Sequence record: MH992122.1
Length of the DNA stretch: 64,000 bases
Reading direction: 5' to 3' (one strand)
DNA from: Escherichia phage OLB35
Shown here: positions 27,387-40,740 of the stretch, piece by piece
How the letters are laid out: every line of letters begins with the position of its first letter
How positions within the stretch are numbered: the first letter of the stretch is position 1
Program-made: the position numbers and the translations under genes
The notes under the pieces: model-generated
What the model was told of the DNA's origin: nothing
Database searches by the model: none
Seen by the model: only the letters and a program-made list of their open reading frames with translations

Positions 27387-27695
27387 TTACATAAGAAGCA
27401 AACGTTCGACCGGAGTACCATCAACCGAAATTACTTTATCAAGGCGGAAAGAACGCCACTGACCTAACTTGGTATCGAATGCTCGAACTGATTCACGAGG
27501 TTCAGAACGAACTTCTGTTGATGGGTTACTATTTTCATATTTGACTTCAAGTTCATCGCGCGAAGCAAACATCGTACGAACATCACCGTTAGCCTTTTCA
27601 AATACAACACAATGAACGCCTACAGACAGAATAGTTTTAATACGTTCACGAAGAACCATAGTTTCTTGTTCAGTTAAAATCATATTATTCACCAC
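27387..27695 (-). CDS. hypothetical protein (31.1-like by position)
   Basis: 102 aa ORF between cd and 31. Confidence 0.45.
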   Translation of the reverse strand: MVNNMILTEQETMVLRERIKTILSVGVHCVVFEKANGDVRTMFASRDELEVKYENSNPSTEVRSEPRESVRAFDTKLGQWRSFRLDKVISVDGTPVERLLLM

Positions 27696-28266
27696 AAAAG
27701 TTTCGGATTTGTTCCCAATTCAGAGAACGAAGATTATTACGAGAGTACTGAATTACTTCAATACCAGCTTGTTTTAGAATATCTGCCCAATTTTCAGGAG
27801 ATCGGTCGTATAATTCTGCGTATACGACCTTTTTAATACCTGACTGCGTAATAGCTTTAGTACAATCAGGACATGGAGAAAGCGTCGTATATAACGTAGC
27901 ACCTTCAATAGAATTACCTTTACGAGCGGCAAACAAAATTGCATTCAATTCTGCATGGATTTCATTATTAGCAGACCATGCACTATGAGCAGCTCGATGT
28001 TCTTTGGCTAAAACAAAATTATCTACCCGTCCAAATGCTGTAGTGCCTTCTTTATGTCCAGCAACGATGACCGGACTTGGTTTATTCTTCAACCAACCAT
28101 TTTCAGATGCATGTTCGCAACAGTTAACGCCACCTGCAGGTGAACCGTTATATCCAGTAGAGATAATGCGTCCATCTTTTTCAATGACGGCACCAACTTT
28201 CCATGAACAACATTTTGATTCTTGAGAAATCAGATATGCAATCTGAAGGTATGTGCTAGCTTTCAT
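27685..28266 (-). CDS. cd: dCMP deaminase
   Basis: 193 aa, T4 Cd size; zinc-binding deaminase motifs CEHAE-like (NCCEHASE) and PCPDC. Confidence 0.9.
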   Translation of the reverse strand: MKASTYLQIAYLISQESKCCSWKVGAVIEKDGRIISTGYNGSPAGGVNCCEHASENGWLKNKPSPVIVAGHKEGTTAFGRVDNFVLAKEHRAAHSAWSANNEIHAELNAILFAARKGNSIEGATLYTTLSPCPDCTKAITQSGIKKVVYAELYDRSPENWADILKQAGIEVIQYSRNNLRSLNWEQIRNFCGE

Positions 28267-29258
28267 TATTGAACCTTATTAATATAAGTTAACAGCTCTT
28301 TAGTTTGTTCCCAACTGATGCACGCATCGGTAACGGAAACGCCATAGGACATATTATTAGAAATTTTTTGATTTCCTTCATGTAGGAACGATTCTATCAT
28401 AATTCCTTTGACCAAATCATTAGCTGCTAAATTTTTACCAATACCAATTTGATTGCTATAATGCCCATCAGCGTTTGCATGGCTACAGTCAACCATTACA
28501 TAATGATTCAGACCTACTGCCCTTGCTTTGTTAGAAGCTTCTTGAATATCAGAAGAATGATAGTTCGGGCCGTTGGTCCCGCCACGCAATACGATATGCG
28601 TATTCTGATTACCTTCAGCTTCAACAATGCCTACAGTACCATCGACGTCCATACCCATATACCGATGAGGCCAGGCGGCACTATACATCGCGTCTGTAGC
28701 TACTTTAATAGAACCATTGGTTGCGTTCTTGAAGCCTACGCACATCGGTAGACCCGAAGCAATTTCACGATGTGTCTGACTTTCAGTCGTACGGGCGCCA
28801 ATAGCAACCCATGAGAAAATACCAGAAAGATACTTAATCGTGAATGGGTCTAATACTTCAGTTGCTAATGGAAGTCCCATACGTAGAAGTTTACGACACA
28901 ATGTTCGTGCAACTATAAGACCGTGGTTCATATCAAAACTTCCGTCAAGATATGGATCATTTACAAGACCTTTCCAACCTACGGTAGTTCGAGGCTTTTC
29001 AAAATAAACGCGCATCACTAACAGAACATTAGGAAGACGAGTTTGAAGTTCAGCCAGACGTTTGCCGTATTCAACCGCAGCAATAGGGTCATGAATTGAA
29101 CAAGGACCTACAACAATAAGTTTGCGTGGGTCTTCACCGTTCATAATCGAATTAACTTGTTCGCGATGAGAAGCCACTTGTGATGCGTAAGCTTCCGACA
29201 AAGGAATAATCTCAGCCAGTTCTTTTGGAGAAATAAGTTTTCCGACGACAGGTAACAT
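28266..29258 (-). CDS. class I (AroG/AroF/AroH-type) 3-deoxy-D-arabino-heptulosonate-7-phosphate (DAHP) synthase
   Basis: 330 aa; conserved blocks GPCSIHDP, VMRVYFEKPRTTVGWKGL, GARTTESQ, GFKN, ILRGG, DCSHAN, ESFLHEGNQ, TDACISW, matching E. coli AroG including the metal ligands Cys/His/Glu/Asp; stop overlaps cd start. Confidence 0.9.
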   Translation of the reverse strand: MLPVVGKLISPKELAEIIPLSEAYASQVASHREQVNSIMNGEDPRKLIVVGPCSIHDPIAAVEYGKRLAELQTRLPNVLLVMRVYFEKPRTTVGWKGLVNDPYLDGSFDMNHGLIVARTLCRKLLRMGLPLATEVLDPFTIKYLSGIFSWVAIGARTTESQTHREIASGLPMCVGFKNATNGSIKVATDAMYSAAWPHRYMGMDVDGTVGIVEAEGNQNTHIVLRGGTNGPNYHSSDIQEASNKARAVGLNHYVMVDCSHANADGHYSNQIGIGKNLAANDLVKGIMIESFLHEGNQKISNNMSYGVSVTDACISWEQTKELLTYINKVQ

Positions 29259-29378
29259 AACAATCCTTAGGAGATATAAACAGATTCTGATTCAACAATA
29301 CCTTTAACCGGATTAGACAGGCTAAGTTGGTAGTGCTCAGATTTATGACCATTCTCGATAGTAATGAGATAGCTCTCA

Positions 29379-29615
29379 TTATAGTGTTCCATATACTCGA
29401 GTTGCTTCAACAAGACCATCACTGCCTAATTTAAGATTAGTAATTTGGTCACCATCTTTAGGATTAACGATTATGAGAAAAGAACGTGGAGATTCTTGAA
29501 TAACTCGTAATGTTGCATCCTGGAAACGTTCAGACACTTTATTGATGAGTGCTTGAGCAAATTCTTTTACTTTAATCTGAAATTCGTGTACTGTAATTGG
29601 ATTTTCACTTAGCAT
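29379..29615 (-). CDS. hypothetical protein
   Basis: 78 aa ORF in the cd to pseT variable block. Confidence 0.4.
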   Translation of the reverse strand: MLSENPITVHEFQIKVKEFAQALINKVSERFQDATLRVIQESPRSFLIIVNPKDGDQITNLKLGSDGLVEATRVYGTL

Positions 29616-29672
29616 TTCAATTTCCTCATTGTTGGTAGAGTCATCATATCACAACTCTACGGTGTTGTAAAC

Positions 29673-38652: not shown

Positions 38653-39513
38653 TTATACCGCCATTTTAGCTTTGATAGTTGGATGAGATTCGTAATTTTT
38701 AAGAACGAAATCAGAATGTGTCATCGTTCCAGTAACCCAGTCCATTTGGATTTTTGTAGGCCAATTCTCAAAATTACTAGGCCAATTAATTTCAAGAGAA
38801 CACAACTCTTTAGGTTCACGACGAAGAACTTCTTTGCATTGTTCTACATGATTGCTGTAGATATGCGTGTTGCCGCCTGAGAACACTAAATCACCTGGGA
38901 TAAGGTTACACATCTTCGCTACAATATGCGTCAAGGCAGCGTATGAGGCAATGTTGAACGGCAGGCCCAAGAAAACATCTACACTGCGTTGATACCATTG
39001 TAAATCAAGATGCCCATTACGCACATTGAACTGATAGAACATGTGGCAAGGAGGAAGAGCCATTTGATTTATTTCGGCCGGATTCCAGGCAGAAACAATT
39101 TGACGACGATCAGTTGGTAATTTTTTAATACTGTTGATTGTTTCAACTAATTGGTCCACACCACCGAAATCACGCCATTGTTTACCATATATAGGACCAA
39201 GTTCGCCGCTATGATATCCAAGGTCTTTTGCCTGATTTTCATAGTTGTCGTCCCAAATAGTTTTACCTTCAATTAGACTACCATGAGTACGAAGACGTAA
39301 TTCATTAACATTAGTAGAACCGGACATGAACCACAATAACTCGGCAATACAAGCTTTCCATGCTAATTTCTTAGTTGTTACTGCAGGGAATCCTTTAGTC
39401 AGGTCCCAACGTAATTTAGTTCCGAACAGAGCAATTGTTCCTGTGCCTGTACGGTCGTCTGTTTCGTAACCGTTTTCAAGGATATTTTTAATTAAATCTT
39501 GGTATTGTTTCAT
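38653..39513 (-). CDS. td: thymidylate synthase, uninterrupted
   Basis: 286 aa continuous ORF, identical length to spliced T4 Td. Confidence 0.95.
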   Translation of the reverse strand: MKQYQDLIKNILENGYETDDRTGTGTIALFGTKLRWDLTKGFPAVTTKKLAWKACIAELLWFMSGSTNVNELRLRTHGSLIEGKTIWDDNYENQAKDLGYHSGELGPIYGKQWRDFGGVDQLVETINSIKKLPTDRRQIVSAWNPAEINQMALPPCHMFYQFNVRNGHLDLQWYQRSVDVFLGLPFNIASYAALTHIVAKMCNLIPGDLVFSGGNTHIYSNHVEQCKEVLRREPKELCSLEINWPSNFENWPTKIQMDWVTGTMTHSDFVLKNYESHPTIKAKMAV

Positions 39514-39526
39514 TTAGCACCTATAA

Positions 39527-40740
<1,214 letters not shown>

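Follow-up and report, generated by a model that had tools for sequence, protein, structure and literature searches.

A phage DAHP synthase with an intact catalytic site and a rebuilt inhibitor pocket, predicted to escape aromatic amino acid feedback, in Escherichia phage OLB35 and its T4-like relatives

Introduction

[quoted passage not shown] The window analyzed here is a 64,000-nucleotide stretch of this genome (record MH992122.1). The locus raises the question of what a T4-like phage does with a shikimate-pathway enzyme and whether this enzyme obeys the aromatic amino acids that restrain its cellular counterparts. The answer favored here, with moderate confidence, is that the gene would provide an early-expressed DAHP synthase that is blind to Phe, Tyr and Trp and forces carbon into the shikimate pathway. 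The sequence features that point to this answer are described below, followed by the points that speak against it and by the alternatives.

Family, Fold and Catalytic Residues

The product is a phage-encoded type I-alpha (AroF/AroG/AroH-type) DAHP synthase with an intact catalytic set. It matches Pfam family PF00793 (DAHP_synth_1) with E=4.2e-75 and 252.6 bits (cutoff 25.5), the NCBIfam 'aroFGH' equivalog TIGR00034 with 427.8 bits (cutoff 173.2) and PHROG 5045 with E=6e-182. The closest solved structure is Escherichia coli AroF (6AGM, E=4e-105). At the subfamily level, the score lies above the cutoff of PRK12755 (455 vs. 343) and below those of the isozyme models for AroH, PRK12756 (386 vs. 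463), and AroG, PRK09261 (363 vs. 568). An AlphaFold2 model built with 50 homologues has a mean predicted local distance difference test score of 93.3 and a predicted template modeling (TM) score of 0.92. It superimposes on the solved type I-alpha enzymes of N. meningitidis (4HSO) and E. coli (AroG, 1KFL and 1GG1) with a TM score of 0.96 and a root-mean-square deviation of 1.4 Å. The beta6a/6b hairpin is kept in this model (strands 198-203 and 209-214), and the N-terminal extension is present, shortened by 8-9 residues.

The preliminary description of this DNA had assigned the ORF to the class I DAHP synthases on the strength of hallmark blocks, four metal ligands and a KPRTT loop. All of these motifs are present (Table 1), and an alignment to AroF, AroG and AroH of E. 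coli MG1655 confirms the ligands: C53, H260, E289 and D311 correspond to AroG C61, H268, E302 and D326. The four ligands are invariant in 25 of 25 phage sequences and in 98 of 98 cellular ones. The residues binding phosphoenolpyruvate (PEP) and erythrose 4-phosphate (E4P), namely R83, K88, P89, R90, T91, A155, R156, K177 and R225, are all conserved as well (their AroG set being R92, K97, R99, T100, A164, R165, K186 and R234), and every member of the phage clade (25/25) has kept 13 out of 13 catalytic residues. The ORF very probably encodes an active enzyme.

The protein is 20 residues shorter than AroG, a deficit that had been placed at the N-terminus. Only eight residues are missing there (AroG I10 aligns with phage L2), and the remaining gap is made up of loop deletions of one, five and two residues, partly offset by a one-residue insertion, and of five residues at the C-terminus. 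An alternative upstream start that would give a full-length N-terminus was ruled out: in the ORF analysis of the window, the frame is already maximal, and the start coincides in 25 of 25 clade members. The identification as a 3-deoxy-D-manno-octulosonate 8-phosphate synthase (KdsA, of the other PF00793 branch, which uses A5P and not E4P) with a role in lipopolysaccharide, hinted at in the phiC120 genome paper (PMC8022965), was rejected because only aroFGH-type NCBIfam models match, and also on the residue pattern and the 43-51% identity to AroF, AroG and AroH. The lipopolysaccharide link is unlikely.

The Inhibitor Pocket

In type I-alpha enzymes, the Phe site spans the tight dimer and is built from the beta-hairpin together with the N-terminal extension (PMC4735112). 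The bound inhibitor is contacted at its main chain by Q151/Q152 and S180/S181, and D155 contributes a stabilizing salt bridge (PMC9529685). These positions were compared in 25 proteins of the phage clade and 98 cellular homologues, using a list of AroG inhibitor-site residues drawn up before the scan. At AroG Q151, Gln is found in 98 of 98 cellular proteins, and the phage clade has Lys (24) or Arg (1). Ser at S180 (97/98 cellular) is replaced by Pro in 25 of 25 phage proteins, Asp at D155 (95/98) by Gly in 24 of 25, Pro at P150 (92/98) by Ile in 24 of 25 and Phe at F209 (97/98) by Tyr in 25 of 25. The equivalents of AroG D6/D7, which cap the pocket from the N-terminus and are present in the cellular homologues, are missing from all 25 phage proteins. 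In the 1KFL structure, these two residues contact the amino group of the inhibitor. The phage pattern occurs in no cellular protein among the best 120 matches. The intact pocket expected of a regulated isozyme is thus found neither in the window protein nor anywhere in the clade, the residues in place being K142, P171, G146 and I141, and the caps (AroG D6/D7; AroF N8 and I11) being absent.

A blind scan over all 330 positions, in which a position had to be at least 90% fixed in each group with different residues, led to the same region. It returned seven positions only, AroG 150, 151, 155, 156, 180, 209 and 223, with the changes P150I, Q151K, D155G, L156I, S180P, F209Y and T223A (AroG numbering). 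Five of the seven are on the pre-written pocket list (hypergeometric P = 1.2e-5), and the remaining pair lies at a distance of one and two residues from listed positions. All seven clade-diagnostic positions lie within or beside the aromatic-amino-acid inhibitor pocket.

Some of these positions are known from feedback-resistant enzymes. AroG P150L and S180F are fully feedback-resistant (PMC9529685), and a replacement of Gln152 or a deletion of Ile11 renders AroF insensitive to Tyr (PMC5791370). Several changes come together in the phage enzymes, and for each of them a loss of inhibition is known or expected. Because the N-terminal caps are absent and the invariant Gln and Ser are now Lys and Pro, the enzyme is predicted to be unresponsive to aromatic amino acids, and its insensitivity to Phe, Tyr and Trp is considered probable. 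The preliminary description had suggested that feedback inhibition may be altered. The pocket substitutions strongly support this suggestion; the N-terminal shortening from which it was drawn is not the main ground.

An Old Phage Lineage

A homologue search in 5.8 billion proteins separates two groups. The first is a short form of 319-343 residues, 55-98% identical to the query, in which all members that carry a source name or lie on a long contig belong to T4-like phages. The second is a cellular plateau of 341-388 residues at 48-55% identity, spread over many phyla. The phage group forms a monophyletic bipartition in 36 of 40 neighbor-joining bootstraps. The window protein shares 52-54% identity with the nearest cellular proteins, and 51, 47 and 43% with the E. 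coli isozymes AroF, AroG and AroH. [quoted passage not shown] A recent capture from the host was rejected on the low identity to the three host isozymes, the phage-like GC3 and the monophyly of the phage clade; by the same sequence measures, the gene is a long-standing phage resident. Between the window and phiC120, the gene has only three codon differences, too few for a ratio of nonsynonymous to synonymous substitution rates.

The order pseT...DAHP synthase...cd is kept in Mosigvirus, Winklervirus (X20), Bragavirus (PM2), Marfavirus (EI) and one metagenomic T4-like contig. The locus thus occurs in at least four Straboviridae genera (complete genomes); the contig holds a divergent member of the clade (P0020), and the gene overlaps cd there too. 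Another divergent member (P0022) has a different context, which is still T4-like.

The Cassette between cd.2 and cd

Upstream of the gene lie homologues of T4 cd.2, cd.3 and cd.4, and the T4 annotation lists cd.1 and cd.2 only at the corresponding spot; the DAHP synthase gene therefore takes the cd.1 position of T4. This agrees with the statement of the preliminary description that T4 has only small cd.x ORFs here. The overlap that it reported with cd is also real: the TAA stop (28268..28266) and the cd ATG (28266..28264) share one base and read TAATG. By this arrangement, the gene is translationally coupled to cd, whose product is 72.5% identical to T4 Cd. The flanking genes are all phage genes (cd, gp31, cd.2-cd.4 and pseT), so that a host-type metabolic gene lies within a bona fide phage genome, which makes it a candidate auxiliary metabolic gene (AMG).

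Table 1. Features of the DAHP synthase locus and of related genes in the window.
Feature	Position	Strand	Remarks
cd (dCMP deaminase)	27685..28266	minus	start codon overlaps the DAHP synthase stop
Right direct-repeat copy TAATGAAAGCTAGCACAT	28268..28251	minus	across the DAHP synthase stop and the cd start
DAHP synthase (type I-alpha) coding sequence	28266..29258	minus	330 aa, ATG start, TAA stop
ESFLHEGNQ ... TDACISW	28311..28394	minus	metal ligands Glu289 and Asp311
TDACISW	28311..28331	minus	metal-ligand block (Asp311)
ESFLHEGNQ	28368..28394	minus	metal-ligand block (Glu289)
DCSHAN motif	28473..28490	minus	metal ligand His260
HRYMGM	28650..28667	minus	AroG F209 replaced by Y200; Gly202
SGLPM	28743..28757	minus	AroG S180, the inhibitor-contacting Ser, replaced by Pro171 (PMC9529685)
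DPFTIKYLSGI, remodeled pocket segment	28818..28850	minus	P150 to I141, Q151 to K142, D155 to G146, L156 to I147; near-invariant in the phage clade
KPRTT loop	28983..28997	minus	K88, R90, T91 = AroG K97, R99, T100; PEP and E4P phosphate binding
GPCSIHDP motif	29085..29108	minus	metal ligand Cys53 (= AroG C61)
Relic ORF	29212..29379		55 aa, MRAIS...
Shine-Dalgarno AAGGA	29268..29264	minus	5 nt upstream of the DAHP synthase ATG
120-nt leader	29259..29378	minus	part of the cassette, missing from RB69 together with the gene; opens with a cd-like pseudo-start (ATGAGAGCTATC...)
Left direct-repeat copy TAATGAGAGCTATCTCAT	29381..29364	minus	at the cd.2 stop
cd.2 homologue	29379..29615	minus	upstream neighbor, same transcription direction, 65% identical to T4 Cd.2
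Putative sigma-70/T4-early-type promoter	29671..29643	minus	TTTACA-17-TATGAT with extended TG; cd.3/cd.2 gap
td	38653..39513		with frd, 9.4-10.6 kb upstream of the DAHP synthase gene
frd	39864..40481		with td, 9.4-10.6 kb upstream of the DAHP synthase gene

RB69, the type Mosigvirus, is without the gene, and the cd.2 stop overlaps the cd start there (L012 7150-7620). The two genomes differ at this place by a single 1113-nt indel, which comprises the gene and nearly the whole 120-nt leader, with only a few bases left out. It is flanked by an imperfect direct repeat (15 of 18 positions identical) that corresponds to the cd start (TAATGARAGCTA...). A relic ORF, the beginning of which resembles that of cd (MKAST...), starts in the upstream copy. 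There are two scenarios: recombination between the repeats removed the cassette from RB69, or recombination brought the cassette in and duplicated the cd start in the process. The coupling to cd is preserved in both. In 101 of 139 records, the identity of the cassette DNA is 99% or more; cd attains this level in only 4 of 193. In three genomes, the DAHP synthase gene is 98.7-99.4% identical, cd 95.4-96.2% and pseT 93.9-96.0%. This lower diversity of the cassette compared to its flanks suggests a recent spread or sweep within the genus.

Among the promoter-like sites of the region, a single one is convincing, in the gap between cd.3 and cd.2. Each of its bases aligns with the T4 site GGTTTAC...TATTAT, an annotated early promoter between cd.2 and cd.3, and is near-identical in T4 and RB69 (GTTTAC...GTAGAGTTGTGATAT[G/T/C][A/T]T). 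No promoter or terminator site was detected by the scan of the 120-nt leader, and neither a MotA box nor a late-promoter motif was seen by eye directly upstream of the gene. Because of the alignment with the T4 early promoter, the gene is probably transcribed early, as cd.2-DAHP synthase-cd.

In Klebsiella phage EI (L007 1981-5048) and Proteus phage PM2 (L006 2106-2822), SegB-like, Seg-like and MobE-like homing endonuclease genes adjoin the DAHP synthase gene. Mobile elements seem to accumulate in the pseT-cd interval as in a hot spot, and they could move the cassette. In p000v (L013 3554-4330) and NHEP10 (L015 3556-4332), the annotated pseT falls short of that in AV112 and in the window by about 120 nt, which may reflect a frameshift or differing start calls.

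Proposed Role and Alternative Explanations

In the mechanism proposed here, a catalytically competent, metal-dependent type I-alpha DAHP synthase would be supplied by an old, monophyletic and phage-only lineage that resides in the pseT-cd interval of T4-like (Straboviridae) phages. The gene belongs to a 1.1-kb cassette, the 120-nt leader and the gene, located between cd.2 and cd; it is probably transcribed from the conserved early promoter upstream of cd.2 and is translationally coupled to cd. The catalytic barrel is unchanged, and the pocket that binds Tyr, Phe or Trp in cellular AroF, AroG and AroH is rebuilt. Made early, the enzyme would draw on the PEP and E4P of the host to form DAHP, and its output would continue at any level of aromatic amino acids because Tyr, Phe and Trp are proposed not to be bound. 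After host shut-off, the first committed and flux-controlling step of the shikimate pathway would be held open; as the cell is then unable to adjust its enzyme levels, a feedback-blind entry enzyme would set the shikimate flux. The surviving downstream enzymes of the host would receive precursor for aromatic amino acids and other products of chorismate. Candidate uses are the aromatic amino acids in the protein of ~10^2 virions, folate and p-aminobenzoate, quinones and others; between these purposes, the sequence cannot decide.

Several points weigh against this explanation. RB69 is without the gene, and the DAHP synthase is therefore dispensable under laboratory conditions. Any benefit hangs on the downstream enzymes of the host, other shikimate or chorismate genes of the phage not having been searched for. 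The putative promoter is a match by consensus and homology only, and no measurement of activity or of Phe/Tyr/Trp insensitivity for any member of the clade was found in open-access full text. The pocket itself gives a mixed picture. The segment EVLDPFTIKYLSGIFSWV (residues 134-151) has an entropy of 0.14 in phages vs. 0.78 in cells, the means over the whole protein being 0.99 and 1.22, and an abandoned site should drift. Such conservation suits a constrained new function, with a different ligand or partner, no less than it suits a simple loss; in part, it comes from the adjacent catalytic loop and the dimer interface. Moreover, P148/M147, D146, L179 and the beta-hairpin are kept, and the pocket may therefore still exist.

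These last observations lead to the alternative that the pocket was re-tuned and not lost, becoming a new allosteric or docking site that couples shikimate entry to a signal of the infected cell. Its effector would be a different small molecule or a protein partner from phage or host; an anionic aromatic compound (chorismate, prephenate) or an infection-specific metabolite is conceivable. The fixation of all seven substitutions and the low entropy of the segment, in a clade that is otherwise only 55-60% identical, are in line with this, as are the hairpin retained in the model and the systematic change in charge, with Q to K, D to G, the D6/D7 equivalents lost, acidic groups gone and a Lys gained. 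However, no candidate ligand or partner was identified, the needs of the dimer interface and of the active-form catalytic loop (A155/R156) could explain the conservation, and S to P and P to I are typical pocket-filling changes of the feedback-resistant type. A re-tuned site is considered unlikely, though by no means negligible; if it exists, it would be a virus-evolved re-wiring of a classic allosteric enzyme. An ordinary, Tyr-inhibited isozyme of the AroF type, which would simply add regulated activity, is what many GenBank labels imply ('aroF, Tyr-sensitive'). AroF is indeed the top solved match, the PRK12755 cutoff is exceeded, Pro stands at the position of AroF P148, and Gly202 of the phage enzyme has its equivalent in AroF Gly212, where AroG and AroH of E. 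coli have Ser211 and Ser210. But Gln152, Ser181, Asp156 and N7/N8 of AroF are replaced or absent in every clade member, and the first of these losses alone, like the Ile11 deletion, yields a Tyr-insensitive AroF (PMC5791370), which makes a regulated isozyme quite improbable.

The other alternatives concern the benefit of the gene and not its regulation. According to the preliminary description, the enzyme feeds folate synthesis through chorismate and p-aminobenzoate, for the benefit of td, frd and the pteroyl-polyglutamate of the baseplate; dCMP hydroxymethylase is a further folate-dependent enzyme that would profit. This purpose, which lies downstream and is compatible with a feedback-blind enzyme, draws on the location of the gene in the leftward early region with cd, nrdAB, td and frd, and the distance to frd and td, upstream, shrinks to ~4-5 kb in a compact metagenomic relative. 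A feedback-blind enzyme would also be most useful where aromatic amino acids are plentiful and vitamin-type products of chorismate limiting. In the window, however, td and frd, described as neighboring, are separated from the gene by 9.4-10.6 kb and ~15 genes, among them pseT, the spanins, alc, rnlA, denA, nrdB and nrdA. The pseT-cd interval is variable, with small ORFs and homing endonucleases, so that position says little on function, and RB69 has td and frd without the DAHP synthase. Folates are recycled cofactors; pab and fol biosynthetic genes were not searched for in the phage. The folate rationale is rather unlikely and would not be favored over aromatic amino acids or other chorismate products. 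It is also conceivable that the product is irrelevant and that the enzyme acts as a sink for PEP and/or E4P, redirecting central carbon, for example transketolase flux, towards pentose phosphates for nucleotides. The genes of nucleotide metabolism nearby and the analogy with cyanophage AMGs, which rewire the pentose-phosphate pathway, would fit such a sink. Yet the location argument is weak, and E4P is by pathway stoichiometry itself an intermediate of pentose-phosphate formation, so that its drain lowers the pentose yield; this explanation is extremely improbable. Hardly more probable is a passenger gene without benefit to the phage, spread with neighboring homing endonucleases or by recombination. 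The absence from RB69, the unusually low diversity of the cassette relative to its flanks and the endonuclease genes beside it in phages EI and PM2 agree with a passenger; the retention of every catalytic residue across several genera and a clade of 55-100% identity, the GC3 fully ameliorated to phage values and the presence of the gene in 139 of ~157 close Mosigvirus records do not.

Comparison with Known Feedback-Resistant Enzymes

The feedback-blind DAHP synthase favored here can be compared to E. coli AroF (Tyr-sensitive, 6AGL/6AGM) and AroG (Phe-sensitive, 1KFL/1GG1), with which it shares the fold, the metal ligands, the PEP/E4P residues and the beta-hairpin. It differs from them by a length of 20-26 residues less and by the loss of the first 8-9 N-terminal residues, including D6/D7 (AroF N7/N8). 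Compared to AroG, P150, Q151, D155, L156, S180, F209 and T223 are exchanged for I, K, G, I, P, Y and A. Feedback-resistant alleles include P150L, D146N, S180F and Q151 variants of aroG, and P148L, Q152I and the Ile11 deletion of aroF. Like these alleles, the phage clade is altered at positions 150, 151 and 180 and truncated at the N-terminus. Unlike them, it is of natural, viral origin, carries several changes at once under strong purifying selection, and its resistance is a prediction.

The closest precedent for a dedicated, feedback-blind DAHP synthase is PhzC (PA1901), a type IIB enzyme of the Pseudomonas phenazine cluster, which serves as an extra copy, encoded outside primary metabolism and devoid of functional sites for aromatic amino acids, and so bypasses feedback for a dedicated demand (PMC6435475). 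The likeness is conceptual, the insensitivity of the phage enzyme being predicted. PhzC is a type II and cellular protein, not a viral one, and has lost whole allosteric helices instead of point contacts.

The significance of the lineage lies in a sharp and testable prediction: in a coliphage enzyme, catalysis is intact, and the residues that throttle the shikimate pathway in cells are changed. If the prediction holds, T4-like phages of gut and wastewater would override the feedback control of a committed biosynthetic step; most of what is known of AMG biology comes from marine cyanophages. The enzyme would be the first natural feedback-blind type I-alpha DAHP synthase, kept by phages to override host control. 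It would also be a naturally optimized feedback-resistant enzyme of this type, and feedback-resistant DAHP synthase alleles are routinely used to engineer the metabolism of aromatics. RB69 as a natural null and its sister Mosigviruses with the 1.1-kb cassette between the same flanks constitute a ready genetic system.

Distribution and Earlier Records

The gene is common and already catalogued, and as a gene it is not new. A tblastn search found it in 212 of 50,697 phage records, it has its own PHROG (5045), it is correctly named in most RefSeq and GenBank records, some of which say aroF or AroG, and it is mentioned in papers. Identity is 95% or higher for the copies in 139 records, from Mosigviruses infecting E. 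coli and Shigella, 60-80% for those in 46 records from Klebsiella, Serratia, Erwinia, Edwardsiella and Enterobacter phages, and ~58% for those of Proteus phages. Over 4.3 kb, the window and phage CCU7 are 99.1% identical, and the DAHP synthase of the window is 99.7% identical to the proteins of CCU7, p000v, the O157 typing phages 3 and 6 and the LF82 series.

The phiC120 genome paper mentions the domain in one line (PMC8022965), and a 2025 paper on Klebsiella phages lists the copy of the Kanagawavirus KLB31 as an amino-acid AMG, as a hypothesis only (PMC11845039). In open-access full text, where absence is a weak negative, no enzymology, genetics or metabolomics of any phage DAHP synthase was found, nor did any transcriptome or metabolome data turn up on its expression during infection. 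No description of an altered regulatory pocket was found in the existing records or mentions either, and the clade-wide rebuilding of the pocket is, as far as could be found, unreported.

Two further DAHP synthases are recorded under phage names. The aroF of 'Acinetobacter phage MD-2021a' (CAKLQH020000056.1) was rejected as a phage example on its cobS and phosphatase neighbors and its canonical bacterial pocket; the aroF contigs of this entry are probably host DNA mislabeled as phage. Aeromonas phage HJ05 (L010 2899-4062), an unrelated phage of 79 kb, encodes a very divergent enzyme of 387 residues (38% identical). Its catalytic residues are intact, with Q151 changed to H, D155 to P, S180 to P and F209 to V, and it may be an independent phage DAHP synthase without the canonical inhibitor pocket.

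An ORF of 115 residues lies between frd and td (window 39527-39874, minus strand). It is absent from phiC120, in which frd and td overlap, common in other records and named a putative homing endonuclease in one of them. From 39400 to 40000, the window matches Shigella phage Shf125875 (NC_025437.1) with 100% identity; in the GenBank record of that phage, the DAHP synthase bears the label 'AroG'.

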